Shown: positions 1,495-58,182, counted from the first letter of the stretch. The stretch is 60,997 nt of DNA from a virus (IMGVR_UViG_3300048591_000195:1-60997); one strand, 5' to 3'. Made by a program: numbers and translations. The notes: generated from the sequence alone by a model not told the origin.

Positions 1495-1504
1495 GATTTA
1501 TTTG

Positions 1505-1771
1505 TTAGTTGTTTGATTCCATAAATTCGGAATTTTTCCGGTCAAGTTCAAGGTTTTCGAGTAATTTATTCAGCGTGGTTATCTGACGGTTTACCCGCAC
1601 ATTTGTAAGCAGCATTTCAGATATACGCTTACCCGTTAGCCTTGCGTGTTTAGCTGCCCACCATTCAGGGCCAATCACAACCTGATTGTTTGAGAGCAGA
1701 ACCAGGTACTTTGTTTCCTTGCGCCTTAGTTTGCTTTTTAGAGGCTTGTTTGAGCAGGTTTGTATTTTCAT
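1505..1771 (-). CDS. hypothetical protein
   Basis: 88 aa ORF in the coupled early operon. Confidence 0.6.
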   Translation of the reverse strand: MKIQTCSNKPLKSKLRRKETKYLVLLSNNQVVIGPEWWAAKHARLTGKRISEMLLTNVRVNRQITTLNKLLENLELDRKNSEFMESNN

Positions 1772-1962
1772 AGTTCCAAAAGTTTTTTGATTTCAGGGTT
1801 AAAATTGATTGCCGCCAATGTGCTGCCAGCGTCATTTAGGGCTTTATCAATTTCCATCAAACGGGATAAATCAAAACCTGATTCACCGGTTAACGATACT
1901 TTATTAACAATATGCCGAACGTCTTGAATAGCAATGATCTGCTGCTGAATGGTGGTTTTCAT
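1768..1962 (-). CDS. hypothetical protein
   Basis: 64 aa, ATGA overlaps. Confidence 0.6.
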   Translation of the reverse strand: MKTTIQQQIIAIQDVRHIVNKVSLTGESGFDLSRLMEIDKALNDAGSTLAAINFNPEIKKLLEL

Positions 1963-2327
1963 TGCTGTAAAAGTTCAGGGTTCTCGTAGATGTTTCCGAT
2001 TACTTCAATGCCATCAGACTGGTTTTTTCGCCAAGCAAAATTCGTATTGTATTGAAAAGCAATAGTTATAATCTTTTCAACTGTATAACCAAAAGCGCCA
2101 TTACAAAACTCAACAACATGATTTGAAATATCAAAACACCTAACAATATCGCCTTCGTAAATGGGCACACCGTTCTTGTCGTGAAGACCGGTGAATTGCA
2201 ATAGTATCCCACACTCAGATATATTAGTAGGAACTCTATGTGCAAATTGATTTGCGGTAAAAGGCTGAGTCATTTTTTCACCCCATCCTTTCTTATACCA
2301 AATTTTGAATTTTATTTCCCTGCTCAT
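1959..2327 (-). CDS. YopX-family protein
   Basis: REIKF...LQFTGLHDKNG.PIYEGDIV...EVIGNIYENPELL signature. Confidence 0.92.
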   Translation of the reverse strand: MSREIKFKIWYKKGWGEKMTQPFTANQFAHRVPTNISECGILLQFTGLHDKNGVPIYEGDIVRCFDISNHVVEFCNGAFGYTVEKIITIAFQYNTNFAWRKNQSDGIEVIGNIYENPELLQQ

Positions 2328-2509
2328 TTCGTTATTTCAATTTCAATTTTATCCTCCAATTCTTCCAAGTCTCTTATTACACTTTTGTAATCAAAGCCGG
2401 AGTACTTCTGTTGAATCTCCGCTATGTTTCGCGCGGAGGCTAAAAGCATTCTTAAATCCCGCAGACTTTCCTCGTCTCCGGTGATTTGTAGGTTTTCAAA
2501 GGTGGTCAT
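2324..2509 (-). CDS. hypothetical protein
   Basis: 61 aa, ATGA overlaps. Confidence 0.6.
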   Translation of the reverse strand: MTTFENLQITGDEESLRDLRMLLASARNIAEIQQKYSGFDYKSVIRDLEELEDKIEIEITK

Positions 2510-3021
2510 TTTAGTAGGGATAAAACAGAATCAGTTAAAAGCTCTCGACATATATTTGCCGTTTCAAGTTGGTTTTTAGTTCGAGCAGCAGCATAAGCAG
2601 CATAAGCAGCATCATCAGCAGCAGCATAAGCAGCATCAGCAGCAGCATAAGCAGCATAAGCAGCATCATCAGCAGCAGCATAAGCAGCATAAGCAGCAGC
2701 AGCATAAGCAGCATCAGCAGCAGCATAAGCAGCATCAGCAGCAGCATCCAGTTCATCGCGTGTGGCTAATCCGTCTGAAAACTTTAACGCTATCTCGCAA
2801 GCTTTTATGGAGCGTTCATCTTTCATTAAATGCCTAACGGTCAAGGCACACTTAGCTTTTGCTTTCGTTAGGATTTTAAAATCAACGTCCAAACGTTTGG
2901 CAAGCCAAAGCATCCAGTCACCGCGTGGACATTCATTCCATGCCTGTTCAAAAGATGAATATTTTGCCCGAAACTCTAAGGCATCACTGCATGGATCAAA
3001 TTTCTCTATTTCATATTTCAT
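2506..3021 (-). CDS. phage protein with Ala-rich (AADAAYA) repeat, Imm5-like helical family
   Basis: PC.DA...AW..CPRGDWMLWL...MKDERS..A pattern followed by A/D/Y repeats. Confidence 0.7.
   Translation of the reverse strand: MKYEIEKFDPCSDALEFRAKYSSFEQAWNECPRGDWMLWLAKRLDVDFKILTKAKAKCALTVRHLMKDERSIKACEIALKFSDGLATRDELDAAADAAYAAADAAYAAAAYAAYAAADDAAYAAYAAADAAYAAADDAAYAAYAAARTKNQLETANICRELLTDSVLSLLK
2583..2748. repeat. imperfect tandem GCA/GCATAA/GCATCA repeat inside a CDS
   Basis: visible array gcagcataagcagca... Confidence 0.9.
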
Positions 3022-3022
3022 T

Positions 3023-3217
3023 TCAGTAGGGATTTAGCTTTTTGGATAACAAGGTTCTAATCTCAATAAGCTGTTTACTTTTGAGATAGATATGCCCATT
3101 GCACGAACACGCAACATCATACAAAATTTCCAACGCCTCCTCAAGCTGGGCAATGCGTTTTTCCTGATCCTGATTTTTCTTTATAAGTTGTTCTGCCAGT
3201 TGTTCGTATACTTTCAT
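3023..3217 (-). CDS. hypothetical coiled-coil protein
   Basis: 64 aa ORF in operon. Confidence 0.6.
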   Translation of the reverse strand: MKVYEQLAEQLIKKNQDQEKRIAQLEEALEILYDVACSCNGHIYLKSKQLIEIRTLLSKKLNPY

Positions 3218-3642
3218 ATCTTCGATTGTTCATTGTACCATTTGATGAATTCGACTACAGCTTCGTAAGTTGCTTTGATAAGACTTTCATCTTCATGAAG
3301 TGTCATTCTGTTTATTCTTACCATAAACTTCCCTGAGTTATTAAGCATTGCAAATGTCCTCGGATATGCATAATCGTATTCGGTTATGTTTTTATAGCCG
3401 TTATTACTTTTAAATTCCTCATAGTAATACTTTGAAATCTTCTCAACCACAGGCATAAGCCAATCCCATGAGACATCAAAGAAAAATTTACCTTGTTGTT
3501 TTGTTGCCCATAGTGGAGGATTATCGTGATAATATAAATCACCATTAAGTATCTTTTTCCACCCCATAAATTCCGCTATTAGACAATTATTCTCCATAGT
3601 GGCAATCAATTCGTTGTCAGTTTTCATATCTGCACCCTCCAT
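3214..3642 (-). CDS. conserved Bacteroidota-phage hypothetical protein (likely start 3627)
   Basis: N.LIAEFMG...SWDWLMPVVEKI...ATYEAVVEFIKWYN motif. Confidence 0.75.
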   Translation of the reverse strand: MEGADMKTDNELIATMENNCLIAEFMGWKKILNGDLYYHDNPPLWATKQQGKFFFDVSWDWLMPVVEKISKYYYEEFKSNNGYKNITEYDYAYPRTFAMLNNSGKFMVRINRMTLHEDESLIKATYEAVVEFIKWYNEQSKI

Positions 3643-3770: not shown

Positions 3771-4369
3771 TAGTCAATTCCAATAAAAAAGTTTGTTAAT
3801 TCCCCGCTTGGGGGCGAGTCTATTTCCTGTTCCTGTTCTTGTGGTTTTGGCATATCCTGAATGGCCTCAATAAGTTTTTTCATTTCCCCTAAACATATTG
3901 AAAATCCTTTCTTATAGTACCTAAATGCTCTACTCATAGTGCTTGCTGGATACGTGATCTTGTTAACCATTAATTGCCTTTTAGCTAAATCAATAAAGGT
4001 TGTTTCACCAAAGTAGACTTTTTCATTATCCACCGCAAACATCGAAACAGTAAAATCAAAATTATCAATTGTAGCTTGAGGTGTGTCAAAGAACTTTTTA
4101 ACAAGGTCATAAGTTTTGCCTTTGTGTTTTACCTTCATCCCGTTATCACTTTCCCATTTCACCTCAGCGTTTTGTTTTTTGAAATGGTCTTTGGCTTTAT
4201 TGTATTCTACTTCATTCGGGAAAAACAAATCATAATCTGTTTTAATAGCAATTCCCATAAAGTAATCACGTAAAGCTCCACCAGCAAGCCAGCAATTTAT
4301 ACCAGCCTCTTTAAGCTCGGTAAGTATTATTTTACCGTAACGTTCGACTGCATTATCAAGTTGTATCAT
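3770..4369 (-). CDS. nucleotidyltransferase (CCA-adding/poly(A) polymerase head-like, standalone)
   Basis: LAGGALRD...DYDLFF and FDFTV motifs. Confidence 0.8.
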   Translation of the reverse strand: MIQLDNAVERYGKIILTELKEAGINCWLAGGALRDYFMGIAIKTDYDLFFPNEVEYNKAKDHFKKQNAEVKWESDNGMKVKHKGKTYDLVKKFFDTPQATIDNFDFTVSMFAVDNEKVYFGETTFIDLAKRQLMVNKITYPASTMSRAFRYYKKGFSICLGEMKKLIEAIQDMPKPQEQEQEIDSPPSGELTNFFIGID

Positions 4370-4662
4370 CAGTTCAAATGTTCAGTCGTTTCTAAAACCT
4401 CACCGGTGAATGAGTCGATAACCCTATCTATCAGTTCCTCGCGTACCTGATCACGGGCATACTTATCATCCCTAAATGATGCCCACTCGCTATGTGATTT
4501 CCTTTGCCTGTCGGCCTCAGCGTCTACTTCTTTTTCAAGATCGTAGGCCGCACCTACTAAAACGAACTCCTGAGCCTTGCCTTCTTCAATGCAAAATAAA
4601 ACGATGTTTCCGGCATCTATCGAAGCCTCGCATTCTAAGCCTTTAAATTTTACTGTTGTCAT
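4369..4662 (-). CDS. hypothetical protein
   Basis: 97 aa, A-rich leader containing the UCAACUAAC motif. Confidence 0.65.
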   Translation of the reverse strand: MTTVKFKGLECEASIDAGNIVLFCIEEGKAQEFVLVGAAYDLEKEVDAEADRQRKSHSEWASFRDDKYARDQVREELIDRVIDSFTGEVLETTEHLN

Positions 4663-4732
4663 AGTTGTTTGCGTTTTGTTAGTTGAAACCGGTTCGCGGG
4701 TTGCCGGTGCCCGTCCTGAATGAAGGAAACGA

Positions 4733-5257
4733 TCAAGGAACCTCCTTCCAGGTAATTCTATTAATTATTCGTCTAACATTGGTTCTTGATATTTTAAAAG
4801 CAGAAGCAATCGTTTTAATTGAAACACCTTTATCAAAACAAGATCGTATGCAAATAATAGCATCCTTATTGAGTTTTGTATTCCAATGTGACTCACCAAT
4901 AAATGCTTTAAAGTTTTGCGGATTGCCCCTTCTTTTCCATAACTCAGGAGAGCGCTTCAATGAGTGCTGAATATTTTCAGATGGATTAACCCATTGTAAG
5001 TTTGATAAATTATTATTCAATTTATCAGCATCAATATGATTGACTTGTGGTTTGTTTTCAGGATTAGGAATGAATGCCTCGGCCAATATCCTGTGAACTA
5101 AAAAATTAACACTTTTACGATTGGCATCTTTTAAAACAACCGATTCATACCCACTTTTACTTACGTGAGTTTTAATAGGCTTTAAGGATGGGCTTAAAAT
5201 AAGCCCGTCCTTAGTAATTGAATATTCTCTAAAAAAGACTTTCATATCAGGAAACAC
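4733..5257 (-). CDS. HNH homing endonuclease with C-terminal HTH (likely start 5245)
   Basis: VHRILAEAFIPNPENKPQVNHIDADKLNN.LSNLQWV..SENI.H; GESHWNTKL. Confidence 0.92.
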   Translation of the reverse strand: MFPDMKVFFREYSITKDGLILSPSLKPIKTHVSKSGYESVVLKDANRKSVNFLVHRILAEAFIPNPENKPQVNHIDADKLNNNLSNLQWVNPSENIQHSLKRSPELWKRRGNPQNFKAFIGESHWNTKLNKDAIICIRSCFDKGVSIKTIASAFKISRTNVRRIINRITWKEVP

Positions 5258-5423
5258 TCAGGAGATTTGAAATTTCCTCAAGATGCCTAACTGTGTTGGC
5301 AATTGTATTATAATCTACCAGCTTATTTGCTTTTTGATTTTCAAAAGAATCTTCATGGAAATTCTTTAACTTATTAGCTACTGATTGAGCCATTTTTGCG
5401 AGTTGCTTTTTACTCTTTTTCAT
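5247..5423 (-). CDS. small hypothetical protein (58 aa), first gene of the early operon
   Basis: Manual translation MKKSKKQLAKMAQSVANKL...LLSVS*. Confidence 0.6.
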   Translation of the reverse strand: MKKSKKQLAKMAQSVANKLKNFHEDSFENQKANKLVDYNTIANTVRHLEEISNLLSVS

Positions 5424-5476
5424 AATGATCGTTTTTAGTTCGGGGAATCGGCCCCGTCCGTTTGTTGTTGATGATT

Positions 5477-5515
5477 CAAAGTAAAGTATTTTTATTGACT
5501 TTTTAAAATATCCAT
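5477..5515 (-). promoter_or_regulatory. candidate early promoter
   Basis: TTACTTTG, near the TAnnTTTG -7 consensus, at 5484-5477 in an AT-rich intergenic region; the -33 box is weak. Confidence 0.45.
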
Positions 5516-5544
5516 AAAAATATTTTTCAACTTTTTTTCAGGAA

Positions 5545-5575
5545 TTTGGTTTTTAGGCTGTTTTCTGTACTTTTG
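5545..5575 (+). promoter_or_regulatory. Bacteroidota sigma70-type promoter
   Basis: TTTG(5545-48)-N19-TACTTTTG(5568-75), consensus match. Confidence 0.75.
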
Positions 5576-5579
5576 AAAC

Positions 5580-6030
5580 GATTGGGGCTGTCTGTATCTG
5601 TTATGGCATTGGCTAATACAGACACCCCAAAAGCATTAAGAGCCGATTTTTTGAGGATGCCACCGAAAAAAGTCGGCTTTTTGCTGTAATAAGTGGTTCG
5701 TTTACGGGAACGCTAAGCCTCGAACAGCAATAACAGGCAAAAAGCAAACCGGTTGAGATAAACTCAGCCATGAGCCCAGAGGACTCACGGCTGGTATAGG
5801 CAGGTGGATAAAATTCCGGGCAATGTACCAAAGGCGACAACCCGGCCGTAAAAAAATGACTCACCTCATTTCACCTGACCCCGGTACGGATTCCGGATGT
5901 TTATCGTCAGCCCGAACGATTTCGGATGCTAACAGGACAAAGATAATGCTTTTTATTCTTGTCTATCCCTAATCGTTAACCGTAACCTTTGTAATGAGGT
6001 TTTACGGATAGGCCTTAGTGTATCAAGTAA
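5580..6030 (+). ncRNA. candidate large structured non-coding RNA
   Basis: Follows a consensus promoter, contains many inverted repeats and has no credible ORF. Confidence 0.5.
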
Positions 6031-6065
6031 CTAAGATAAAGAATCAAAAAAAGAAGTTCAGATAA

Positions 6066-6101
6066 TAAAAAAAAACCCCGGGACATCTCGTGAACCGGGG
6101 C
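6066..6101 (-). terminator. rho-independent terminator closing the late/lysis operon
   Basis: CCCCGGttcacgagatgtcCCGGGG followed by T9 on the minus strand. Confidence 0.8.
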
Positions 6102-6132
6102 TAAACGCATGACAAAACAAAAAAGCTATCAG
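6066..6132 (-). ncRNA. candidate small RNA ending in an intrinsic terminator
   Basis: TTG-N20-TAGGTTTG promoter at 6168-6138, then CCCCGG..CCGGGG hairpin plus U-tract. Confidence 0.45.
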
Positions 6133-6142
6133 TACGACAAAC

Positions 6143-6658
6143 CTACAACATCAGAACCAATAAAACAACTATCACTGCACCCTCAATAAACACCACCCTG
6201 AAAAGCTGCTTTATTTTCGATTTAAACGCCTTGCGGTCTATATCGTGTATTTCCTTGGCTAACTCGTATTCGCGCTCCCAGCGGCTTATAACAAACAATA
6301 GCGCCTCGTTTTCGCCATCCTTTAACTGGATAGCCCGTGAATGCCCCGAAACAAGGTTATTCAGGTCGGCTATCTGTATAGCCTGCTCCCGCTGCAATGA
6401 ATCACATACCCGACCTTTTCTGACCTCAAAGACCATAGCATCAAAGACTTTTTCAGGCACCGGAAAGCCCTGGCCCTCGCACGTTTGAACTCCAAAAATG
6501 GAGCAAAACAATAACAGAAAAATAATTCCGACTATTACCCGGTCGGTCTTTGTCATTTCCTTTTCGTGCCTTTCTTCATGGAAGTTCATAGAATTGTGGG
6601 TAAAGTTTCCGTAAAATTGAATCCCTTTGCGAATCGGTGTGGTATTGAACCCATACAA
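6143..6658 (-). CDS. putative spanin-like lysis protein (likely start near 6556, MTKTDRV)
   Basis: Hydrophobic signal with Cys, coiled coil and C-terminal hydrophobic tail; adjacent to the TM coiled-coil gene after the endolysin. Confidence 0.55.
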   Translation of the reverse strand: MYGFNTTPIRKGIQFYGNFTHNSMNFHEERHEKEMTKTDRVIVGIIFLLLFCSIFGVQTCEGQGFPVPEKVFDAMVFEVRKGRVCDSLQREQAIQIADLNNLVSGHSRAIQLKDGENEALLFVISRWEREYELAKEIHDIDRKAFKSKIKQLFRVVFIEGAVIVVLLVLML

Positions 6659-6935
6659 CGTCTTTCAGGCTCTTATTCAGTTTGGATATGGTTTTATCCC
6701 GTCCTGAAATCTGACCCGCTAATGAGCGATTAACTTCGATCTGGATGTCGAAGCTATCACGAAACAATTTGGCTACCCTAAAAAGGCTATCTTTCTCAAA
6801 CCGAACCTGCTTTAACTCGGTTTCCAGCTTCTCCTTTTGTTCCTCGTGGAACCGGTTTACCTGCCTGTGTACGACAAATAAGGATACCAGCAGCCCAAGC
6901 GAGACGATGGATAGAATGATTACGGCTATTTTCAT
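6576..6935 (-). CDS. putative i-spanin
   Basis: N-terminal TM plus coiled coil, in the lysis cassette. Confidence 0.6.
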   Translation of the reverse strand: MKIAVIILSIVSLGLLVSLFVVHRQVNRFHEEQKEKLETELKQVRFEKDSLFRVAKLFRDSFDIQIEVNRSLAGQISGRDKTISKLNKSLKDVVWVQYHTDSQRDSILRKLYPQFYELP

Positions 6936-6937
6936 GG

Positions 6938-7087
6938 CTATTTGACTTTAAGCGTGTGTGTTTCCCCACAAGTAAGACACTTGAATGTGTAAATGTGTTC
7001 TACCGGCTGGCCAAACTCAAACCGGTCTTTGTATATCGCCTCATAGCTTACTTGGCGGGGTTTGTGGTTAGGGCATTTGGGGGTCAT
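6938..7087 (-). CDS. small Zn-finger-like protein (49 aa)
   Basis: Manual translation MTPKCPNH...FKCLTCGETHTLKVK*. Confidence 0.55.
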   Translation of the reverse strand: MTPKCPNHKPRQVSYEAIYKDRFEFGQPVEHIYTFKCLTCGETHTLKVK

Positions 7088-7392
7088 AGGTTAATGACTT
7101 CTTTGAAGTAAAGAAAATGAGTTTTACCCTGTGGGTATTCATCAACATGAAACTTAAATTCAGGGTGCATTTTTTCAACAAGCTCTTTGGCTTGCTCCCG
7201 AAAATCAGCATTAACAACTATGCATATTCTCCCGCGCCTTCTTTCAAATGATGACTTAGCAAATCCTGAATCGGTATCCAATATCTTGTCATTCAAAATA
7301 CCGTTCGCTTTCAAAGCCTCATTCATTTCTTTTTGTAATTGCTTGTCATGCTTTCCTAAACATGAGTTTGCGATACCTGAATAATTTGTCAT
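7084..7392 (-). CDS. hypothetical protein (moron-like)
   Basis: 102 aa, preceded by an AT-rich promoter-like gap. Confidence 0.65.
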   Translation of the reverse strand: MTNYSGIANSCLGKHDKQLQKEMNEALKANGILNDKILDTDSGFAKSSFERRRGRICIVVNADFREQAKELVEKMHPEFKFHVDEYPQGKTHFLYFKEVINL

Positions 7393-7467
7393 GATGTTTG
7401 TCTGTTAATTGATACCCTAAAAGTAATTATGTAGATTTTAAAAACCTAATAATATTTCAAGAAAATA

Positions 7468-7535
7468 TCCGGTACGGCTCAAAATGGGTGAAAAATCAAC
7501 AGTACAACCAAATACCATGACCGAGCCGTACCGGA
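7468..7535. repeat. 13-bp perfect inverted repeat with a loop of about 40 nt
   Basis: TCCGGTACGGCTC ... GAGCCGTACCGGA. Confidence 0.85.
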
Positions 7536-7541
7536 AATGCC

Positions 7542-42880: not shown

Positions 42881-42922
42881 ATGCCAGTGAGCCAAGAGCA
42901 AAACCTGCTGCTGATGCTACGC

Positions 42923-43136: not shown

Positions 43137-43139
43137 TTC

Positions 43140-43706: not shown

Positions 43707-43817
43707 TTTTGATGTTTTGTTATTGTTAGTTGAAGCGCACGACCCCGATCCGCCTGACCGAGGCCGTTGTTATCACCTTTTAAATTACCGTTATGCTACA
43801 AGTAAATAATTCGCGCT

Positions 43818-44282: not shown

Positions 44283-44304
44283 TTTTATTTGTTAGTTGAC
44301 ACAA

Positions 44305-45553: not shown

Positions 45554-45583
45554 TTTGCAATCTGTTTCTTAAGTTTGTTACCT

Positions 45584-45859
45584 TCATCCAAGTTTTATCT
45601 CAAAAACATCTACAGGATTACAGCCGAAAAACTTATGCTCAATTGTAACAATTTCAATGCTAACTATTTTTTTTCTTATTCGAGGTGCGTTTTTGGCATA
45701 TCCCAATTGAAAAGTTACATGCTTCCATTGTTTTGACGTTAGCCTGTTAAGCCAATATTCTGTTAGCAGTCTATACTCAGATGTTTTTCTTCCAGACTTT
45801 ATATAGTCAAAATATTCACTTTTTAGAATCAGAAACAAATCTTTCATTGAATTTATCAT
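45584..45859 (-). CDS. ASCH/PUA-like protein
   Basis: L.LKSEYFD.IKSG.KTSEYR...YW..RL...F.LGY. Confidence 0.8.
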   Translation of the reverse strand: MINSMKDLFLILKSEYFDYIKSGRKTSEYRLLTEYWLNRLTSKQWKHVTFQLGYAKNAPRIRKKIVSIEIVTIEHKFFGCNPVDVFEIKLG

Positions 45860-45893
45860 TTACATGATTATTAATTATTTGCTGGATATAACA

Positions 45894-46004
45894 TCAGACA
45901 CTTGCAGGGGTTTCGTTGTTGTGTAATCCAGCTTCAATGAAATTACAAACTTGACCATTAACTGAAACTGATTGTTTTTCGATGTTGATTGTGATTGTTT
46001 TCAT
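45894..46004 (-). CDS. small hypothetical protein (36 aa)
   Basis: Manual translation MKTITINIEKQSVSVNG...; ATGA-coupled. Confidence 0.4.
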   Translation of the reverse strand: MKTITINIEKQSVSVNGQVCNFIEAGLHNNETPASV

Positions 46005-46207
46005 ATCTTTTTTGTTTTGTTTAATTTTTTTCGGATGACGGGTACACGATAAAGAGTAACCTCAGCATCTAAGTACGGGCGTTCGTTGCGTGACAAATGA
46101 TATTGAATAGTCTCGTAATTTCGCCCTGGATAATATTCAAGGAAAACAGTTAAGGTCGAGTAGCATTCTACCCGACCGTCTGACCATTGCGCGATGATTA
46201 CTCTCAT
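46001..46207 (-). CDS. hypothetical protein
   Basis: 68 aa, coupled. Confidence 0.6.
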   Translation of the reverse strand: MRVIIAQWSDGRVECYSTLTVFLEYYPGRNYETIQYHLSRNERPYLDAEVTLYRVPVIRKKLNKTKKI

Positions 46208-46365
46208 CCTATCTGATTTTTTGAAAGGCGAAGCGTACCTTTTTCTATCTCTCTTCCGCCTTCTTTCAAGCGTTCACGAGCTTCGCGAATATTGTTTGCC
46301 CGAATTTCAGTTGTAACCCACTGATCTTTTTCGTTTGAGCGTGTCCATGCTGTGTACTTTTTCAT
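46204..46365 (-). CDS. small hypothetical protein (53 aa)
   Basis: Manual translation MKKYTAWTRSNEKDQW...; downstream of a promoter. Confidence 0.55.
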   Translation of the reverse strand: MKKYTAWTRSNEKDQWVTTEIRANNIREARERLKEGGREIEKGTLRLSKNQIG

Positions 46366-46390
46366 AACTGTGTTTGTTTAAATTGTTACG

Positions 46391-46421
46391 TAAATATACA
46401 CATAAAAACGTAAAAGTCAAT
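46391..46421 (-). promoter_or_regulatory. candidate promoter
   Basis: TTG-N19-TATATTTA. Confidence 0.5.
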
Positions 46422-46518
46422 AGGTGGTTACCGAAATAGTATAATATTTTAGTAAATATTTTCAAAACCTTTTAAATTAGGGTAAAAACGAAGATTGTAA
46501 GAATCTCTTAATTTAGTA

Positions 46519-46956
46519 TCAAATTGAGGCTTTGTACTCAAATGAGGCTGTTATTCGATTTGAGGATATAGTGGATTTAAATGAATTTGAGATACTATTA
46601 CTATTACTTTTTCTGCTAACCGTTTTACACAGCCAATTTTGATGCCTTTTTAAACCAAACACAAGCGCTGGAGATGATGTTGTAATACCTATTCTAAACC
46701 CTTGTTGTACCAGAATTTTAGCAATTTCAGTTAAAAATAGTATGCCGATTGATGCTCCTTGATAGTCGGGCAATATGACAAGACGATGTATTTTCCTCAT
46801 GTTTTGTACCCTTGGATGAGGGAAATGAATAACACTGCAATACCCACAAACTTGATTGTTTATTATAGCTATATATACTTTTGCGGAATTAGCGTGATCT
46901 GAACTCAGATAATGATGTCGAGCAAACCTGAAATTTAACGCTAAATTTAACTTTCT
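46519..46956 (-). pseudogene. 5'-truncated GNAT acetyltransferase domain
   Basis: The frame is open upstream of ATG 46800 (FARHHYLS...VCGYCSV.HFPHP...HRLVILPDYQG.SIG) but has no standard start codon before the stop at about 46957. Confidence 0.6.
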
Positions 46957-47016
46957 TCATTAATTTCAAAATATTATTTCGTTTTAGCGGTAACCATACG
47001 GTGGTGAACAGTCATT

Positions 47017-47993: not shown

Positions 47994-48030
47994 AAAAAAA
48001 AGAAACCGGAGGGACATCACCCCCTCCGGT
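47994..48030 (-). terminator. rho-independent terminator
   Basis: ACCGGAGGG-ggtgatgt-CCCTCCGGT then TTCTTTTTTTT. Confidence 0.85.
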
Positions 48031-48074
48031 ACTATCAACTAACAAACGGTTGAGCATGGGATGCTCTTGGCGTG
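47994..48074 (-). ncRNA. candidate trans-acting sRNA (about 80 nt)
   Basis: Consensus promoter, 5' hairpin GAGCAT-ccc-ATGCTC, unpaired seed GTTTGTTAGTTGAT and terminator; no ORF. Confidence 0.65.
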
Positions 48075-48079
48075 CGATT

Positions 48080-48111
48080 CAAAACTAAAAAACATACAGT
48101 TAAAAAACAAA
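48080..48111 (-). promoter_or_regulatory. Bacteroidota sigma70-type promoter
   Basis: TTTG(48111-08)-N20-TAGTTTTG(48087-80), consensus match. Confidence 0.78.
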
Positions 48112-48134
48112 GCGGGGTTTTTAGGCCCCGCCTT
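48102..48134 (-). terminator. rho-independent terminator ending the replication operon
   Basis: AAGGCGGGG-cctaaaaa-CCCCGCTTT-GTTTTTT. Confidence 0.8.
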
Positions 48135-48317
48135 AATTGCTACTCTGTTCTTATTTTGCCTGATTGCTGACATACCCCTATGGCCAAGTCTAATTTGTAT
48201 GCTTGGAATTTATTTGCCGAAATGTTGCTATCGCATAGGTCACTAAGTTCAGGGAAGAAGTAGAAAGACAGAGAGCAAATTTTTTATCCATTCGTAGCGG
48301 TTGTTGGTGGTTTTTAA

Positions 48318-50368: not shown

Positions 50369-50371
50369 GGG

Positions 50372-50647
50372 CTACGGGTTTTCGATTGGACTTACTTCAA
50401 AAACATGAAATACCAAACCATTACTAAGTTGAAAAGTATCAATATAAAGGTAATCAATAGGCCAAAATGGATTACCTGTACCAATAATAGCTAAAGTTAT
50501 TTTATCTTTTGCATTATCGGTGTCAACAAGAGCCCACAACACAGGTGTACCGTTTTGAACCTGAACGCTAAGTATTTCAGCAAACTTATAGCTCTCAATC
50601 TGAATTTTATCAGATATTTCTAAGGTGTATTTATGTATTGTCCTCAT
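50372..50647 (-). CDS. conserved phage hypothetical protein
   Basis: TIHKY.L...ILSVQ.Q...LWALVD...GTG...Y..TFQ...LVFHVFE. Confidence 0.75.
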   Translation of the reverse strand: MRTIHKYTLEISDKIQIESYKFAEILSVQVQNGTPVLWALVDTDNAKDKITLAIIGTGNPFWPIDYLYIDTFQLSNGLVFHVFEVSPIENP

Positions 50648-51762
50648 AATTTTTCAGCGTTATCCCTAATATACTTTTCTGTTTTCTCAAGCAACACAAT
50701 AGCATTGAGAAGGATTTTTGCTGCATCTTCATCTTTCAGACTACACATTGAAAAAATGTTTTTCTTATCATTGATTTCATCTGCAATCAGAATTAGCTTA
50801 TCCTTGTCAGGTGCACGTTTCGATTTTCTTTCAGCAGCTTGCTTTGCCTTGCGTTCACGTTCTAAAATTTCATCGCGTTCGCGGGCTTCTTTCTCCAATC
50901 GAATACGTTCATCACGCTCTTTCTGTAATTTGGATTCCAGTGCTTCTTTCTTTTTTTGTTCAGCCTGATTAAACTTGTTTACCATCTTAGATAAATCCGC
51001 AAACAATGATTCAAACTCTTCCGAATCCATCTTCTGAATTTTCGACTTTAGTAAACCATATTGAATACCTTCATGGTTGTAAGAGGTCGAAGTTTCATTG
51101 TATTTAAAATCAATTGAAGTAAGTCGATTCACACGAGTTTGCAGCACCTTTAATTTTTCGTTCTCTCTCCTGATTCGTTCCTGCTCTTTTCGTTCTTTTT
51201 CCTCGCGCTCAATTCGTTCCTGTTCAATCCGCTTTGCCTCCGCTATCTTTTGCTCATGCGCTAATTTCTGGCCGGATAACAGAAAATTAAAAGCATCCTC
51301 ATTCATGTCTGCCAACGGCATAGAATGAACATTGTCACCCATAAAAGGAAATAGTAATTCTAACCTTTCAGATTGAAGTTTTAACTTCCTTTCCTGTTCC
51401 CTTAGTTTTACAAAATCCTCCTGCTCCTGCAAATGCTTCTCAATAGGTTCGATCATTCCGGTTAATGTCCTTTTGATTGAATCCAAAAGCTGACCTTTCT
51501 TTAATACATCGGCTTTCAATTCCTTGTGCTTTTTGTCAACCGATACCCTAATATTTTTCAGGGCTAATCGTGCCTCCCGCGCTGACCTCATTAAGTCAAC
51601 TTGGCTTTCGTCTGTAACCACTAATTCACCGGCCTTTTCTTTCCATTCGTTTGCCTGTTCTTCAAAAGGCAGAAAATGGTTCTTTAAGGAAATGGCGGTT
51701 TCCGCTTCTGCATGGGCTTCGTCAATCTGAATGACGATAGCCGATTGTTTTGTGTCTGTCAT
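50644..51762 (-). CDS. long coiled-coil protein
   Basis: AREARL.LK.IR..V.K..KELK; E/K/R-rich. Confidence 0.7.
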   Translation of the reverse strand: MTDTKQSAIVIQIDEAHAEAETAISLKNHFLPFEEQANEWKEKAGELVVTDESQVDLMRSAREARLALKNIRVSVDKKHKELKADVLKKGQLLDSIKRTLTGMIEPIEKHLQEQEDFVKLREQERKLKLQSERLELLFPFMGDNVHSMPLADMNEDAFNFLLSGQKLAHEQKIAEAKRIEQERIEREEKERKEQERIRRENEKLKVLQTRVNRLTSIDFKYNETSTSYNHEGIQYGLLKSKIQKMDSEEFESLFADLSKMVNKFNQAEQKKKEALESKLQKERDERIRLEKEARERDEILERERKAKQAAERKSKRAPDKDKLILIADEINDKKNIFSMCSLKDEDAAKILLNAIVLLEKTEKYIRDNAEKL

Positions 51763-51773
51763 TGGTGTGATGG

Positions 51774-52772
51774 TTAGTTGATAAGTGATAATTGATTATT
51801 GGTTTTAAATCGAGATTTAACTGACTCAAGATTTAATTTCGCTTGCTTAAAATAACTTTCTTTTAGTTCAACTCCTATAGCTTTCCGTCCCAATGAAACG
51901 GGGCTATAAACCTCACTTCCAACTCCCATAAATGGAGTTAATACAACTTCATCAGGATTGGTGTATAAATACACTAATCTATCAATAACATCTAACTGCA
52001 ATGGATGAACATGCTTTTCATCGTCATCCTCCTTGCTTTCCTTAAAAGGCAAAACATTATTTCCCCTTATATCATCCCACACACTTGAAGCATAACGCTG
52101 CCATGTAATATGAGATAACTTATTTACCGATGGATCACCTTCAAAATTTATCCACTTCTTTTTAAATAGTTCGTATTTACCATATTGTTCTTCATGCATA
52201 GGCAAAAATGGTGATGAGCCAAAATAATCAAAATCAGTCAATCCATTTTTATGAGTAACAGGCACTTTATTTTCACCGCCTTTTCTGAATATTAAAACAT
52301 AATCAGGAATAGCCGTAAAACATCTTGTTGAATCTTCAACAATGTTTTTATGTGTTAATGACTGCACCATTGTTCTCATTCTAACCTCCAAAGGTTCCTT
52401 CCATATTGTTATTCTATTGTTATAAGTAAATCCATATTTTAAATGCAACTTAATAACCTCATGAGGAAAATCCCAAAGATTATGCTTAGTTGTTTGGACA
52501 ATAATATCCTGACAATGTACTGCACATATACGACCAGGTTTTAAAACCCTTGAAACTTCATTTACTAAAAACTCATATTGAATTAAAAAATCTTCAAAAC
52601 TTTCATTATTACTCATATCTCTTTTATCCGAAGAGTAAATATAAAGCCCAGCAAAAGGAGGCGAGTAAACACATAAATCAATTGAATCATCAGGCAATTG
52701 AGGTATTACATCCATGCAATCACCGTTATAAATACTGTATTTATCCGTGTTGATCTGTTCTTTTACTTTCAT
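51774..52772 (-). CDS. DNA amino-methyltransferase (N4-C/N6-A, beta class)
   Basis: YSPPF catalytic motif, HVHPLQLDVI, VLTPFMGVGS. Confidence 0.92.
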   Translation of the reverse strand: MKVKEQINTDKYSIYNGDCMDVIPQLPDDSIDLCVYSPPFAGLYIYSSDKRDMSNNESFEDFLIQYEFLVNEVSRVLKPGRICAVHCQDIIVQTTKHNLWDFPHEVIKLHLKYGFTYNNRITIWKEPLEVRMRTMVQSLTHKNIVEDSTRCFTAIPDYVLIFRKGGENKVPVTHKNGLTDFDYFGSSPFLPMHEEQYGKYELFKKKWINFEGDPSVNKLSHITWQRYASSVWDDIRGNNVLPFKESKEDDDEKHVHPLQLDVIDRLVYLYTNPDEVVLTPFMGVGSEVYSPVSLGRKAIGVELKESYFKQAKLNLESVKSRFKTNNQLSLIN

Positions 52773-54127
52773 AAAAATGATGGTTTTATTATTTGTTTAT
52801 CAAATGGCTTTACGCTTAGATCAATTTGCTTATTAACCGCCTTATTTATTGTTTCTGAAAAATCTTTAGCTTTATTTTTTTTATATAAAAGAGTTTCAAT
52901 AACTCGCTTTTGTCCATCAGAAATAACTAAATCTACCGTAACTGGTTTAGTCTGACCAAATCTCCAAAATCTTCTAATAGCCTGATAGTATTGTTCATAA
53001 CTCCATGTTGGAAAATAAATGGTGTGATTACAATGCTGCCAGTTTAATCCGAATGAAGTTATTTTGGGCTTTGTTATCAATTTTTTAATTTGACCATTAA
53101 CAAACCCTAAAAGTATTTCTTCCTTCTTTTCTAATTGCATCGAGCCTTTTATTTGGCAGGCATCTTTATCAATTTCATCTAATAAATCTCCTTCATCATT
53201 AAAATTACACCAATAAACACAAACATCAGAGGATAATTCAAAAGCCTTTTCACATCTTTCTTTTACTGTTCCCTGTTGTTCCTGCCTAACCTCTGACATT
53301 GTTTTTGCCACAGTATTAAACATCATGACCTGACCGTCAATAATCCAGTTATTCACATTGTAAACGCGGTGTATATTCTCAATTAATTCAGGTAACAAAT
53401 GCCTTTCATCACTAAAACCTAAATCAGATGGTTTCTTCATGTGTATGCTCCATGTAGTAAGCCAAGAAAAAAAATACTCTTTAGCGTGTGGCTTTAAATA
53501 CCATTTACTTCCAATATCTTGAGGTCGTATGTTATTTTCATTGTTTCTAAAAAATTTTTGAAGCATGTCCATATAAGGTAAACTCCCTAATGCTTCAGAA
53601 CTTGTGCCAAATTCTATATAATCATTCGGAGCTGGTGTAGCTGTAAATAAATACCGATACTTTACTTTTTTAAGAAATGCCGTAACCTTGTTTTTAATTG
53701 CGCCTTCAAAGTTCTTGAGTATTGAGCTTTCATCAAGAATAACACACTCAAAATCCTGCCAGTTAAATTTATCTAAACGCTCATAATTACAAACCACTAT
53801 TTTAGTTTTGTAGCTTCCATCCTTTGAGTATTCAATATCATCTATCTGAAACTTTTCAGCCTCTTTAATAAATTGGAAGGCAACCGCAAGAGGGGTAATA
53901 ATTAAAACAGGCTTATTTGTTTCCTGAATGTAGTTTTTGGCTATTGTCAATTCAATAATTGTCTTGCCTAAACCAGTATCAAGAAACACAGCGCAACGAC
54001 CTTTTTTTATTGCGTATTCAGTTACATACTTTTGGTAATCAAACATTGAATCAGGCAACCAGTTAGGTTTTATGCCATAATCATTTGATGTATGCCTTTT
54101 ACTTTCAATAAACTGATCGTATGTCAT
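52769..54127 (-). CDS. SF2 (SNF2-like) helicase
   Basis: DTGLGKT, LDESS, TATPAPND, GLNWQ, QAIRRFWRFGQ. Confidence 0.92.
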   Translation of the reverse strand: MTYDQFIESKRHTSNDYGIKPNWLPDSMFDYQKYVTEYAIKKGRCAVFLDTGLGKTIIELTIAKNYIQETNKPVLIITPLAVAFQFIKEAEKFQIDDIEYSKDGSYKTKIVVCNYERLDKFNWQDFECVILDESSILKNFEGAIKNKVTAFLKKVKYRYLFTATPAPNDYIEFGTSSEALGSLPYMDMLQKFFRNNENNIRPQDIGSKWYLKPHAKEYFFSWLTTWSIHMKKPSDLGFSDERHLLPELIENIHRVYNVNNWIIDGQVMMFNTVAKTMSEVRQEQQGTVKERCEKAFELSSDVCVYWCNFNDEGDLLDEIDKDACQIKGSMQLEKKEEILLGFVNGQIKKLITKPKITSFGLNWQHCNHTIYFPTWSYEQYYQAIRRFWRFGQTKPVTVDLVISDGQKRVIETLLYKKNKAKDFSETINKAVNKQIDLSVKPFDKQIIKPSFL

Positions 54128-54157
54128 TGATTGTTGATGTTAGTTGATGAAACAAAT

Positions 54158-55143: not shown

Positions 55144-55373
55144 TGCAAGAATGTTTTAAACGGTTTATTCCTACGTCTGAAAAGTATGCCCTTGTCGATT
55201 GCCAGTTTGATCTTCTCTGACTCCCAAAATTGATCGTGTTCAATAACCATCAAATGCCAATCGCCTATCTTGTTGTAATACAAATACGCCTTTTCATTGC
55301 GTTCAATGAAAGTACAAAGGTCTTCCCATTGAACCGGAACTAAATCTTTTATTTGATCTTCTGTGAACTTCAT
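55140..55373 (-). CDS. hypothetical protein
   Basis: 77 aa, coupled. Confidence 0.6.
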   Translation of the reverse strand: MKFTEDQIKDLVPVQWEDLCTFIERNEKAYLYYNKIGDWHLMVIEHDQFWESEKIKLAIDKGILFRRRNKPFKTFLQ

Positions 55374-55376
55374 ATC

Positions 55377-57503
55377 TTAAAATGGTGGGTCTTCCGGTAA
55401 CGGTGCGTTCATGTTTGGCTTTGCCTGTTTCATCTTTGCGTAATGGTTCTCGTACTTCATTTCAGATTGATGCCCCTTCAATAATGAGCCGTCAATCGGA
55501 CAAACACCATTAAAAAAAAACCTGTTTGTTAATTCATCAAAATGAATCTGATCGAAGTATCCTAACTTTGTCGTTAATTCCTGACTGCGTTGCTTCAATG
55601 TGTAAAAACTGCCTTTCGGGCTATTTGGGTTTATATGCTTCTCATGCCTGTGGTACGAAAATATTCCATCCATTGAATTATCCCAAGCAGAGCCACCCAA
55701 CAAATCATGCTGTGTTACTACCTTATATTCTCCATTAAGTTTTCCGTTCTTTCTCATTCGCCTTTCGTCCATGCTTTTCGGGTGAGCAATTAAGTTTCCG
55801 ACCATATCCGTATCAAGAACCAAATCCTCAAATTCACCAAACACCCTTTCAAGAACCACGTCCTTTGTTGTCTTTCCTTCATCTATCGTTAAGTTCTTCC
55901 ACGGGTCAAGTAAGAATCCATCCGTTCCAAAAGTTTCATATAGGTTTTTAAATCCTTCAATTACTGTTTTTGGTGCCCGGTCTTTGTGAGTATCCAATAC
56001 AAAAAAATGCTGCTCTATCCATAACATCGCAGCCTGATATTCTGCCAAAGTCATTTGATTGCCTTTGTGTTTGTATGGGTTCTTTCCCGTGTACGCATGA
56101 ATCAGAATATTATAAATCTTGTGCGCTGATCTTACCATTCTGCCGTCCGAATTTTTTACCGAATCAATCATTTCAGGACTCCATATCGCCCACTTCCAAT
56201 CGTCAATAACAGACTTCACCAACATCAAGAAAAGCACGAGGCCAGTATTATGTGTTGGAACAAACGATCGGCCTGATAGATACAGATGACTTGGGGAATC
56301 AACCTGAATACATTTTACAGGAACACTATTTATAGGATCACATGAAACAATACTTCTGTACCGACAATTCAATCTTATTTCTTTTGAAAGTCTTTTTTTC
56401 TTTCTTGGTAAAGAGAAAACATCTTTGTTAGTTTTAAAAGTTATTCTATATCGATCCGATGTTTTTCTGCCATATAATTTAGCATCATATTTTTTAGAAT
56501 AACATTTGATGCCTAATGAATTTATCAGTGTATAAACATGGTTAGATAAATTAAAATTTGTACTGGTAAACTCCATATTTCCTGTTTTTGAAGCTGTGCC
56601 GTCAGAATCCATTAACCCCCTTAATAACTCCATTCTATCACTTTCATCACTAAATAAATAAATATCTGGAATATGTTTATTGTGCAGTAATTTCAATTCA
56701 ACCATTTGTTTTCTTACTCCATGAATCGTGAATTCTCCACAGTTTCTATTCCTCTTATCTGGCCTAAAAGTACCAACCTCATAACCTAATGATGTTAATT
56801 TTTGTAAATAAAAATTGTAATCATCAAAAGAGCTTGTTATTGAATTTGTTCTTGAATTTCCATCACCAAGCCATAAACCAATTATATAAGGATGAACAGG
56901 TAAATTATTTTTACTACATTTTATTGGTTTCGCAACAGGAACATAATGTTTATATCTTTTATTACCATTAACATCAATTCTATCGATCAATGTTCGACTA
57001 ATTTCATAAGTAGTGACAATTGATGGTTGTACCATCTTATATGATTGATCGGTTCCTCTTAATTTAAGAGGCCCTCTCCTTTCGTTTCTATATAGGCTAT
57101 TAACAGCATGAGAACTATATGTTTTCCATAAATGATCCTCACAACAAATTTCCTCAGTTCCATCACTAAATGTAATTTTATAGCATCTTTTATTAAACTG
57201 AACTTCGGTTACGAACGTAACATTACATTGATTACCATTTTCATCAAAGACGATATCACCTGCTTTTAAATCCAACATCTTTTTAAACCCGTTTGGAGTT
57301 GGTATTTCTGTATGTATCCACTGAGCTTTCCCGAAACCCGCAAATCCAGTAAACGCATTTAAAAAACCACGCATCCAACTGAATATATTTTCCAAGTCAG
57401 AAATACGGCACTTATCCGCAATCTTTCCTCCCTCCTTAAAATCAACTATTAATCGTGATATGTTTGGAGGTAAGTACCCGCCTATGTTTCCGTTATCTGA
57501 CAT
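55377..57503 (-). CDS. SF4 (DnaB/gp4/Twinkle-like) replicative helicase domain with intein
   Basis: TGFAGFGK|T Walker A split by the intein; WSPE, LLDPW, IAHP, GGSAW.NSMD. Confidence 0.88.
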   Translation of the reverse strand: MSDNGNIGGYLPPNISRLIVDFKEGGKIADKCRISDLENIFSWMRGFLNAFTGFAGFGKAQWIHTEIPTPNGFKKMLDLKAGDIVFDENGNQCNVTFVTEVQFNKRCYKITFSDGTEEICCEDHLWKTYSSHAVNSLYRNERRGPLKLRGTDQSYKMVQPSIVTTYEISRTLIDRIDVNGNKRYKHYVPVAKPIKCSKNNLPVHPYIIGLWLGDGNSRTNSITSSFDDYNFYLQKLTSLGYEVGTFRPDKRNRNCGEFTIHGVRKQMVELKLLHNKHIPDIYLFSDESDRMELLRGLMDSDGTASKTGNMEFTSTNFNLSNHVYTLINSLGIKCYSKKYDAKLYGRKTSDRYRITFKTNKDVFSLPRKKKRLSKEIRLNCRYRSIVSCDPINSVPVKCIQVDSPSHLYLSGRSFVPTHNTGLVLFLMLVKSVIDDWKWAIWSPEMIDSVKNSDGRMVRSAHKIYNILIHAYTGKNPYKHKGNQMTLAEYQAAMLWIEQHFFVLDTHKDRAPKTVIEGFKNLYETFGTDGFLLDPWKNLTIDEGKTTKDVVLERVFGEFEDLVLDTDMVGNLIAHPKSMDERRMRKNGKLNGEYKVVTQHDLLGGSAWDNSMDGIFSYHRHEKHINPNSPKGSFYTLKQRSQELTTKLGYFDQIHFDELTNRFFFNGVCPIDGSLLKGHQSEMKYENHYAKMKQAKPNMNAPLPEDPPF
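56247..57326 (-). mobile_element. class-3-type intein (360 aa) with LAGLIDADG homing endonuclease
   Basis: Starts with Ala (AQWIHTEIPTPNG), ends VPTHN before Thr; DHLW, VKCIQV; GLWLGDG and LRGLMDSDG. Confidence 0.92.
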
Positions 57504-58182
57504 TCAATTCCTCTATTTCTTTTAGTTCCTTTTTGCATTTATCCAGTTGAACAAATACGTCCACAGTATCGTCATAGCAATCCTGATGTATCTTGCTACC
57601 GTATTCAATCAGTTTTCTTTTGATAGCCATTTCAATAACACAACGCGCATGGTATTCTAAGTTTGCAGCACTCGATACCTTTGAGGTTAATTCAGCGATG
57701 TAATGCGCTCCGCCAATCATTTCCAGTTTACCCGACTTTCTTAAGGCCATTACCACAGTACGCATATCAATTGCCATGTTTTCAGCCTTCATTTTTTGTA
57801 GGGTTGAAAATATCTCCTGATGGGCCGGATTGTAAAAGCTATCAGGATTCATAATTAAAAGCACCTTTTCGGTTTGGTCGTTGTTCTCCAACATCAATGC
57901 CCCAAGTATTGCCTCCTCCAAGTCAATCGCCTGCGGGGGTATCTTTCCTAAATCATCACGCTTTTTTATTTCATCTTCATAGGCTCGGAGTAGCTTTTCA
58001 ACTACGTTAATGAATAGGTTATTTTCCTGGATTTTGATTTTAATCTTTTGCGATGGTTCCTTGTATCGTTCCAGTAATTCAACGGAGTTCTTGAATTTCT
58101 TTAAATAGAAACTAACTTCGTCCTTTAAGTCTTGCAGGCGAGGCTTTTGCTTGTACGTTGATGTTTTGTTAGTTGATTGCAT
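57493..58182 (-). CDS. DnaB-like helicase N-terminal-domain protein
   Basis: PPQAIDLEEAILGALM...FY..AHQ.IF...ID..TV...GGAHYIAELT..V.SAAN.EYHA. Confidence 0.9.
   Translation of the reverse strand: MQSTNKTSTYKQKPRLQDLKDEVSFYLKKFKNSVELLERYKEPSQKIKIKIQENNLFINVVEKLLRAYEDEIKKRDDLGKIPPQAIDLEEAILGALMLENNDQTEKVLLIMNPDSFYNPAHQEIFSTLQKMKAENMAIDMRTVVMALRKSGKLEMIGGAHYIAELTSKVSSAANLEYHARCVIEMAIKRKLIEYGSKIHQDCYDDTVDVFVQLDKCKKELKEIEELNVR

Follow-up and report, generated by a model that had tools for sequence, protein, structure and literature searches.

We analysed the IMG/VR virus record IMGVR_UViG_3300048591_000195, a linear sequence of 60,997 nt that was used as a whole (called the window) and for which CheckV estimated a completeness of 74%. 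The subject of the analysis is a short sequence tag that recurs at gene starts in this phage, together with a candidate small RNA (sRNA), predicted near 48 kb, that contains the reversed tag and may read it. Greedy calling placed 91 of about 101 open reading frames (ORFs) on the minus strand, and since most genes lie on this strand, GTTAGTTGA of the plus strand appears in the mRNAs as UCAACUAAC. Comparison with PHROGs and Pfam identified genes for a virion protein (19874-22216), tape measure (22254-25928), major head protein (29571-31154), portal (32126-33622) and a terminase-large-subunit-like product (44348-45553), along with NinB, RuvC, a 3'-5' exonuclease, a DNA methyltransferase, ERF, an RNase_T-type exonuclease, an SF2 helicase and a protein with a DnaB N-terminal domain (DnaB-N). 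The host of the phage is probably a member of the Bacteroidota, because the nearest cultured relatives of the SF2 helicase belong to Flavobacterium phages (60% identity), and similar helicases on bacterial contigs led to metagenome-assembled genomes (MAGs) of Bacteroidota.

The 8-mer GTTAGTTG was present 11 times on the two strands of the window against an expectation of 1.95 +/- 1.45, and none of 100 dinucleotide shuffles reached 11 copies. Nine copies were on the plus strand, that is, in the sense orientation of the minus-strand genes, and two (43039 and 48036) were reversed. The initial annotation of this sequence had given nine plus-strand coordinates for a 9-mer motif and had placed them near start codons. 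All nine exact copies were found there, with none other on the plus strand, and all nine fell within the -35 to +15 windows of the 91 called minus-strand starts, which make up 7.5% of the sequence; both reversed copies were absent from that list. The last C of the tag was 8-18 nt upstream of the ATG in eight of the nine sense copies, and the ninth (58168) starts 3 nt past the only plausible in-frame ATG of the DnaB-N gene. Tagged leaders were A/C-rich and G-poor, and base composition had been put forward as a possible explanation of the motif. In 2000 sets of leaders simulated with a first-order Markov model, CAACTAAC was seen 0.075 times on average (maximum 2), as against 8 of the 91 real leaders, so that composition is not sufficient. 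The three variants that had been listed at 36241, 37995 and 59504 were present as one-mismatch 9-mers, a class that was weakly enriched as a whole (24 compared to 15.95 expected).

The TAA of the tag forms the stop codon of the upstream ORF in three of the nine exact copies (ORFs ending at 1505, 41050 and 51774) and in two variants (36242 and 37996), in agreement with what had been noticed earlier for several cases. The proposed lack of the motif in the head/tail module held for exact sense copies, none of which was found between 4686 and 40647 (head, tail and lysis genes), but a variant compatible with G-U pairing is present at 7400-7414 beside the lysis region. The description of the tagged genes as early or middle was apt in part, with four of them lying between the terminase-like and portal genes, and of the names assigned to them ERF, RNase_T/DEDDh exonuclease, SF2 helicase and DnaB-N were upheld, while ASCH and coiled-coil found no support in Pfam or PHROGs. 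Where the gap upstream of a gene was 8 nt or more, the tag or a close variant was present at 9 of 20 genes located outside 5.3-36 kb and at 1 of 15 genes inside this region, and where the gap was shorter than 8 nt, at 1 of 55 genes; the tag marks genes with independent starts. Its consensus, A-T-CAACTAAC-A-A-A, also written (A)TCAACTAAC(AAA), is longer than the 9-mer first described. A table of flanks with ten rows, the tenth being the reversed copy itself, showed A at -2 in 7 rows, T at -1 in 9, and A at +1, +2 and +3 in 7, 9 and 7 rows, respectively. No shared element was found upstream of the tags.

No other full 9-mer in reverse orientation is present in the window besides the reversed tag at 48035-48043, which is located on the transcribed strand in a 357-bp gene-free gap between a gene for a 178-amino-acid (aa) protein and the next small gene. 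On the minus strand, a preceding terminator (48108-48135) is followed by a promoter-like site that its tail overlaps, TTTG-N20-TAGTTTTG (48080-48111), which is a pattern match to the Bacteroidota -33/-7 type. A small RNA of about 80 nt is predicted downstream (47996-48074), its ends being placed from the -7 box and the U-run. This RNA would begin with a 6-bp hairpin, GAGCAU-CCC-AUGCUC (48052-48066), and continue into a single-stranded seed (48031-48051) that includes ...CCGUUUGUUAGUUGAUAGU with the anti-tag GUUAGUUGA, and an intrinsic terminator with a 10-bp stem containing seven G-C pairs (48005-48030) and a U-run behind it. The open stretch between the hairpin and the terminator reads AACCGUUUGUUAGUUGAUAGU, and the part predicted to pair is UUUGUUAGUUGAUAGU. 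Folding of 47994-48076 (83 nt) gave -27.3 kcal/mol (z = -2.77), none of 200 shuffled sequences was as stable, and the predicted fold consisted exactly of hairpin, open stretch and terminator. The seed was unpaired in the centroid structure; in the minimum free energy structure the 5' part of the seed was weakly paired and GUUAGUUGAUAGU was open, so that the fold leaves the anti-tag unpaired. The anti-tag lies 4 nt 5' of the terminator stem, about 30 nt past the 5' hairpin and about 45 nt past TTTG-N20-TAGTTTTG. The gene strand has 10 terminator-like sites, and the 22-nt stretches immediately 5' of them amount to 0.36% of the window; with two reversed copies and 10 sites, the chance of a reversed copy falling in such a stretch is about 0.7%. 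The predicted order of hairpin, open stretch and terminator matches textbook descriptions of trans-acting bacterial sRNAs. The only AUG frame in the sequence has 22 codons and runs through the terminator. This RNA, which is likely to be the reader of the tag, was not identified in the initial annotation.

Rfam gave no match at the gathering score over the whole window, and at E <= 1 over 42.7-48.4 kb no match except one unrelated weak hit; neither the Rfam model nor the R1 seed of the FopS/GibS family of sRNAs was matched. Upstream of the first terminator, about 180 nt from the stop of the 178-aa gene (48136-48317) are without a called minus-strand gene. The second reversed copy, the 8-mer GUUAGUUG (43039-43046, minus strand, in the gap 42816-43139), is probably a chance occurrence, because no fold signal was seen (z = +0.38) and about one chance copy is expected per strand. 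A second sRNA candidate on the minus strand (6066-6169) was rejected, as its seed is of low complexity and it had no clear regulon, with a single 14-nt match at 46007-46020. It contains a TAGGTTTG box, a stretch UUUUUUGUUUUGUCAUG and a terminator loop that has GAUGUCCC in common with the 48-kb terminator.

We described the fit between the seed and the leaders by counts of contiguous pairs instead of duplex energy. Contiguous Watson-Crick pairing of 10-13 nt with the seed was possible at 11 places on the gene strand, 10 of which are at gene starts; the eleventh (56424-56433) is within a LAGLIDADG intein, and on the opposite strand only the antisense of the small RNA gene itself reached this complementarity. 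When up to two G-U pairs were allowed, 13 runs of at least 10 pairs were present in the start windows, three of them untagged extras, and 14 when the start near 37984 was corrected, whereas 300 shuffled seeds averaged 1.6 such runs and never exceeded 11. In all, the seed can form 10-15 contiguous pairs at 11 start regions, or at 12 with the corrected start.

All tagged leaders are on the minus strand. The longest contiguous Watson-Crick match, 13 pairs, was to ATCAACTAACAAA at 58165-58177, 3 nt past the ATG of the DnaB-N gene (57493-58182, Pfam DnaB). The tag at 54138-54148 (11 pairs) is 10 nt 5' of the ATG of the SF2 helicase (52769-54127), and that at 51773-51784 (12 pairs, one G-U) is 10 nt 5' of the ATG of a 372-aa gene (50644-51762), its TAA being the stop codon of the methyltransferase. 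A run of 15 pairs with two G-U (44287-44301) lies 4 nt 5' of the ATG of a 154-aa gene (43818-44282), and 11 pairs (43723-43733) lie 16 nt 5' of that of the DEDDh/RNase_T exonuclease (43140-43706). Two neighbouring tags of 10 pairs each, at 41049-41058 and 40647-40656, precede a 125-aa gene (40660-41037, 11 nt) and a 136-aa gene (40226-40636, 10 nt), the first of them supplying the stop of a 419-aa gene. Towards the left end, 12 pairs at 4675-4686 are 12 nt 5' of the ATG of a 97-aa gene (4369-4662), and 12 pairs, one of them G-U, at 1500-1511 are 5 nt 5' of the ATG of the ERF gene (637-1494), where the TAA ends the ORF 1505-1771. In two variants, U replaces C of the consensus, and pairing is preserved as G-U. 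One is TTATCAACTAAT (UUAUCAACUAAU; 37995-38006, 12 pairs including G-U), about 10-11 nt 5' of an in-frame ATG near 37984, with its TAA as the stop of ORF 37996-38154, and the other is TATCAATTAACAGAC (UAUCAAUUAACAGAC; 7400-7414, 15 pairs, two G-U), 7 nt 5' of the ATG of a 102-aa gene (7084-7392) beside the lysis region. The membership of two weak variants is doubtful: ATCAACTAA (59505-59513, 9 pairs), just 3' of the ATG of a 37-codon ORF, and AAACTAAC (36241-36248), 4 nt 5' of the ATG of a 53-aa ORF (36075-36236). The conserved flanks of the tag match the flanks of the seed and lengthen the duplex.

A second phage with the same design was found in L065, a 21-kb IMG/VR contig that is otherwise unrelated to the window: the two share only one weak hit and a helicase-methyltransferase pair (identities of 67% and 63%). 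L065 has a tag of its own, UUUAAACAACUU, whose 9-mer TTAAACAAC was present in 12 copies against 1.36 expected. Nine of these are 7-22 nt 5' of the ATGs of seven ORFs, including the helicase, and two are inside ORFs. The single reversed copy is in a gene-free gap, where a -7-like box, a 6-bp hairpin and a 15-nt open stretch are followed directly by a 9-bp terminator stem. The anti-tag was unpaired in the fold, as in the window, no ATG was present downstream of the reversed copy on the other strand, and the chance of such a placement is about 0.3% (one copy, three sites). Two phages with different tags, matching anti-tags and one predicted layout are the nearest thing to covariation that we obtained.

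The counts of the tag, the anti-tag, the predicted fold, the complementarity and the second phage of the same design are observations. We propose, with a probability of roughly 0.55, that the tag is the target site of a trans-acting sRNA encoded by the phage, with a regulon made up of the phage's own mRNAs whose translation it probably represses. The phage probably controls the tagged genes together by RNA pairing, because the tag is an exact mirror of the exposed stretch of the small RNA. The suggestion that the motif is a shared regulatory address at the RNA level gains support from its sense-only position at starts, the G-U variants, the fit of the flanks and the anti-tag units in two phages. 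According to this proposal, host RNA polymerase would make the ~80-nt RNA on the gene strand, starting at a separate promoter of host type near 48.07 kb, and the transcript would end at the terminator at 48005-48030. The open stretch UUUGUUAGUUGAUAGU would then pair with (A)UCAACUAAC(AAA) in the initiation regions of about 11-13 phage mRNAs, namely those of ERF, the neighbours of two exonuclease-type genes, the SF2 helicase, DnaB-N and several genes of no known function. The duplex would cover approximately -4 to -30 relative to the AUG, or the first codons (+4 to +16) in the case of DnaB-N, and would most likely block loading of the 30S subunit. The result would be a joint turn-down of independently initiated replication, recombination and accessory cistrons, with coupled genes following. 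Bacteroidota mRNAs have an unstructured, A/C-rich leader in place of a Shine-Dalgarno site. Repression appears to be the likeliest outcome, because the ribosome lands on this leader, and pairing of FopS and GibS at this place is repressive; the alternatives would be activation of the mRNAs or their protection from decay. Transcription of the RNA, pairing in vivo, the repressive sign and the timing are what we infer.

Conservation of the motif in related phages, which the initial annotation had named as a check, was not borne out. In 80 helicase-related IMG/VR loci (926 kb), CAACTAAC was at background level, with 22 copies on the gene strand and 17 on the other, and it was absent before the helicase start, so that the tag is not a property of the helicase lineage. 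Two of the helicase-related loci have start tags of different sequence. In L040, AAACACCTCTCACA is directly 5' of four ATGs, with one partial copy (1524-3345 and 9359), and in L048, ACATTATGA spans the start at eight places (4200-19177); an anti-tag was present in neither of them in the stretches examined. No relatives of the 372-aa protein were found, ERF had relatives at one locus (34% identity), and nine proteins related to the 178-aa protein encoded beside the small RNA were found (40-61%), the viral and metagenome contigs of which contained no such RNA or tag. Neither of the two RNA units had a match in a blastn search of 50,697 phage records. The 16-nt seed word was present in 73 stretches of IMG/VR, none of them with a terminator behind it or a tag regulon, and we took these to be chance or coding matches; L027, which came from a screen for tags and terminators, was likewise a chance case.

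Several results weigh against an sRNA regulon. Full matches to TTTG-N20-TAGTTTTG were not enriched in the window (3 compared to 3.95 expected), and ATGs on the plus strand lie 12-16 nt downstream of the reversed copy, as they would for the tag of a plus-strand gene. No relatives of the window RNA were found, hence there is no covariation within a lineage, and the alignment of the window RNA with the L065 RNA, two sequences only, was poor. Among the long helicase-related loci examined, L065 was the only further one with the tag/anti-tag design, and Flavobacterium phage hattifnatt9-1 had no tag/anti-tag pair. The evidence from L065 is itself less strong, with a fold z of -2.09, 6 of 200 shuffles as stable, and a promoter and U-tail weaker than those of the window. 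A scan of duplex energies with RNAduplex did not separate the tagged leaders from G+C-richer chance sites. Lastly, some duplexes end 16-18 nt 5' of the AUG, which is far for a simple steric block, and two sites lie 3' of an AUG.

The tag could instead be a cis-acting translation signal that is read by the ribosome, a host factor or a phage protein, in the manner of a start-associated sequence, an epsilon-like enhancer or a RegA-like operator, and the reversed copy would then be incidental or the tag of a plus-strand ORF. Eight of the nine copies do lie in the position of a ribosome-binding site, 8-18 nt 5' of the ATG, an ATG is present 12 nt downstream of the reversed copy, and start tags with no anti-tag in the stretches examined were seen in L040 (4-5 starts) and L048 (8 starts). 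The available text on the start-associated sequences of Cluster K mycobacteriophages also left their reader as 'RNA or protein' (PMC3203893). A signal of this kind leaves unexplained, however, why the single reversed copy is placed in the open between a hairpin and a terminator in two unrelated phages. The 61-aa plus-strand ORF that opens at the reversed copy is without a homologue and absent from the protein collection, and its course would be antisense to two terminators. Comparison of 20 proteins to Pfam and of 30 to PHROGs brought up no recognised family of RNA-binding proteins. No 9-nt complement to the tag was found in a partial 16S rRNA (9-873) from one Bacteroidales MAG, which is perhaps not of the host's group. 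We consider a cis-acting signal to be rather unlikely. It is quite improbable, in our estimate, that the tag is a DNA site for a transcription regulator of the phage, an operator with the orientation bias of stoperators whose copy at 48 kb regulates that small unit. The short, asymmetric form of the tag, its location in gene junctions, its orientation along transcription and its occasional overlap with stop codons would be in keeping with such an operator, but 9-10 bp is short for an asymmetric protein site, and neither the restriction to sense copies at starts, nor the tight spacing to the ATG, nor the tolerance of C-to-T changes that keep G-U pairing is predicted by it. No repressor was recognised among the proteins scanned from this record, which is 74% complete.

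The chances are very small that the tag is a compact promoter, or a signal for transcription start or processing, that gives each tagged gene its own mRNA with a short leader. Three tags are 3' of G+C-rich hairpins (4678, 43725 and the reversed copy) and two are 3' of -7-box-like sequences (44291 and 54139), but the tags have no common upstream element, three of them share bases with the stop codon of an upstream gene that is closely packed, and the copy at 58168 lies past the only in-frame ATG of its gene, so that a transcript starting there would be without a start codon. Equally hard to credit is that a host small RNA with the same seed reads the tags and that the RNA of the phage copies it or acts as its decoy. 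Seed sRNAs that are present in multiple copies and bind to A/C-rich start regions do occur in Bacteroidota hosts, as described for FopS in the available part of PMC11697453. Against this, Rfam gave no match, and the families searched include FopS according to the statement on family deposit in that part of PMC11697453; tags that differ between phages with related helicases also fit better to a reader carried by the phage.

Contigs from four DNA sequencing runs covered 40.4-58.4 kb with relatives that are about 90-99% identical and span the RNA gene and most of the tags. They contained 1,538 differences, and the 40 of these that were listed included none in a tag or the seed. The gene for a 91-aa protein (50371-50645) was missing from the related phages, the joint 50370/50646 being present in all four runs, and in one run 65 letters took the place of 45509-46962; both are gene-sized insertions or deletions between close relatives. 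The LAGLIDADG intein mentioned above is an in-frame insertion of 1080 bp (56247-57326) within a DnaB-like/P-loop helicase gene (55377-57503, minus strand), and is absent from the relatives, as contigs of three runs connect 56246 directly to 57327. Nine copies of the 9-bp unit CAGCATAAG (plus strand) are present in 2589-2721 at spacings that are multiples of 3, forming a three-residue coding repeat within a 171-aa ORF (2506-3021). Late-gene leaders on the minus strand at 14488-14510, 18627-18650 and 29559-29575 have common strings of the type UAACUUUAA(A) directly 3' of the upstream stop, and AUAUUUUAAAUAAU is common to the leaders of two late genes (starts 15338 and 16718); these strings may be a separate signature of late-gene leaders. 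Repeat arrays were seen in two other loci, with five 22-bp tandem iteron-like units containing CCATTTGCCCAAACGGGCAA in L060 (14075-14185) and four 11-bp tandem units of TTCTAACAAAA in L014 (8140-8185), and are likely to be origin or operator arrays.

The timing of phage gene expression is usually ascribed to promoters, sigma factors and repressors. If the proposed sRNA regulon is real, one small RNA would gate about a dozen cistrons across 57 kb by means of 10-13-nt tags in their leaders. This would be a compact post-transcriptional regulon within a phage, in a phylum where ribosomes do without Shine-Dalgarno pairing and where the study of sRNAs has begun only recently. The design can be searched for in any phage genome, its signature being a set of start tags together with a single reversed copy that precedes a terminator or occupies a loop. 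The literature that we searched, a limited collection, described no phage-encoded sRNA for a Bacteroidota phage, and the available text of a 2025 review has no mention of Bacteroid- or Flavobacter- (PMC12197685).

Start tags resembling those of the window in arrangement are known from Cluster K mycobacteriophages. As described in the available part of PMC3203893, the start-associated sequence (SAS) is a 13-bp element found in one orientation just 5' of the starts of 11-19 non-structural genes, sometimes with the upstream stop codon, and with one copy in reverse orientation that is not near a gene start. Its consensus, GGGATAGGAGCCC, is G+C-rich, contains the Shine-Dalgarno core AGGAG and is located 3-7 bp from the start (PMC3203893), and its role was still called unknown in the portions of PMC11373665 and PMC12699233 that treat it. 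The tag of the window is similar to the SAS in keeping to one orientation (nine sense and two reversed copies), in having no exact copy in 4.7-40.6 kb and in the rarity of its reversed copy. It differs in being A/C-rich, in lacking a Shine-Dalgarno core and in its position 8-18 nt from the start (eight of nine copies) or past the ATG, and the two are unrelated in sequence.

We also examined the setting of the reversed SAS. In phage Anaya (JF704106, 20.0-60.8 kb), 16 forward SAS copies (up to two mismatches) and one reversed copy (59870-59882) were found, the latter within a gene-free gap of 385 bp that separates gp96 from gp97 and is close to the right end. The core of the reversed SAS, CCUCCUAUCC, forms the apical loop of a predicted hairpin (z = -4.0), and this anti-SAS hairpin was present in 122 Mycobacterium phage records. 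In eight aligned phages, chosen from the 40 matches listed so as to span 79-100% identity, the loop CCTCCTATCCC was invariant (8/8), the loop that mirrors the SAS being CCUCCUAUCCC, and the 16 pairs of the stem varied in keeping with the fold, with one compensatory change and several one-sided G-U changes. Judging from its coordinates and the published transcription of Adephagia, the hairpin would lie in a late transcript. Phages of K2 and K3 are reported to be without a reversed SAS (PMC3203893, available part). The hairpin may be a reader of the SAS tags, which we offer as a lead and not as a result. It is possible, though we put it forward only tentatively, that a start-codon tag paired with a phage RNA displaying the anti-tag is a general device that has arisen repeatedly to switch blocks of genes at the level of translation, in the window, in L065 and maybe in Cluster K, where it would explain the SAS tags that have gone unexplained since 2011. 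This idea is testable, as Cluster K phages are cultured and engineerable, have RNA-seq data and are used in therapy.

Other known systems have parts of this logic in common with the proposed regulon. The RegA protein of T4 shuts off translation of many early mRNAs at their initiation regions, at loosely defined AU-rich sites. RegA and the window would thus follow the same principle of one phage product acting on many mRNAs, but the tag of the window is a sharply defined site, and its reader is most probably an RNA. The stoperators of L5 and Cluster A phages are DNA sites for the repressor and are spread across the whole genome. Similar to these, the tags are many short asymmetric sites at gene junctions, oriented with transcription; unlike them, they are tied to start codons, fit an RNA partner and have no exact site in the head/tail block, and no repressor was recognised. 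The 13-bp stoperators of L5 are also contrasted with the SAS in the available part of PMC3203893.

Among sRNAs, GibS and FopS of Bacteroides thetaiotaomicron combine a single-stranded seed with a canonical promoter and a terminator. They repress translation and pair with the initiation regions of many mRNAs, and for FopS-10 translational repression has been shown (PMC11697453, in the part available). The RNA predicted here from the window resembles them in its host-type promoter pattern, open seed, Rho-independent terminator and several targets at start regions. Whereas GibS and FopS are described as encoded by the host, with a seed at the 5' end and targets in polysaccharide utilization loci, the window RNA would be encoded by the phage, with a seed between a 5' hairpin and the terminator and targets among phage replication and accessory genes; it has no sequence or Rfam relation to them. 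Phages also encode sRNAs such as PreS of lambda and VpdS of vibriophage VP882, the latter described in the available text of PMC12197685 as acting on phage and host mRNAs. These are likewise trans-acting sRNAs carried by phages that alter the fate of mRNAs during infection, as is predicted for the window RNA, but they are Hfq-dependent, belong to Proteobacteria and are characterised there mainly through host targets, with no common tag on a dozen phage leaders described. In its working, the proposed system would be closest to FopS/GibS and to phage sRNAs such as VpdS, and in its appearance to the SAS of Cluster K.

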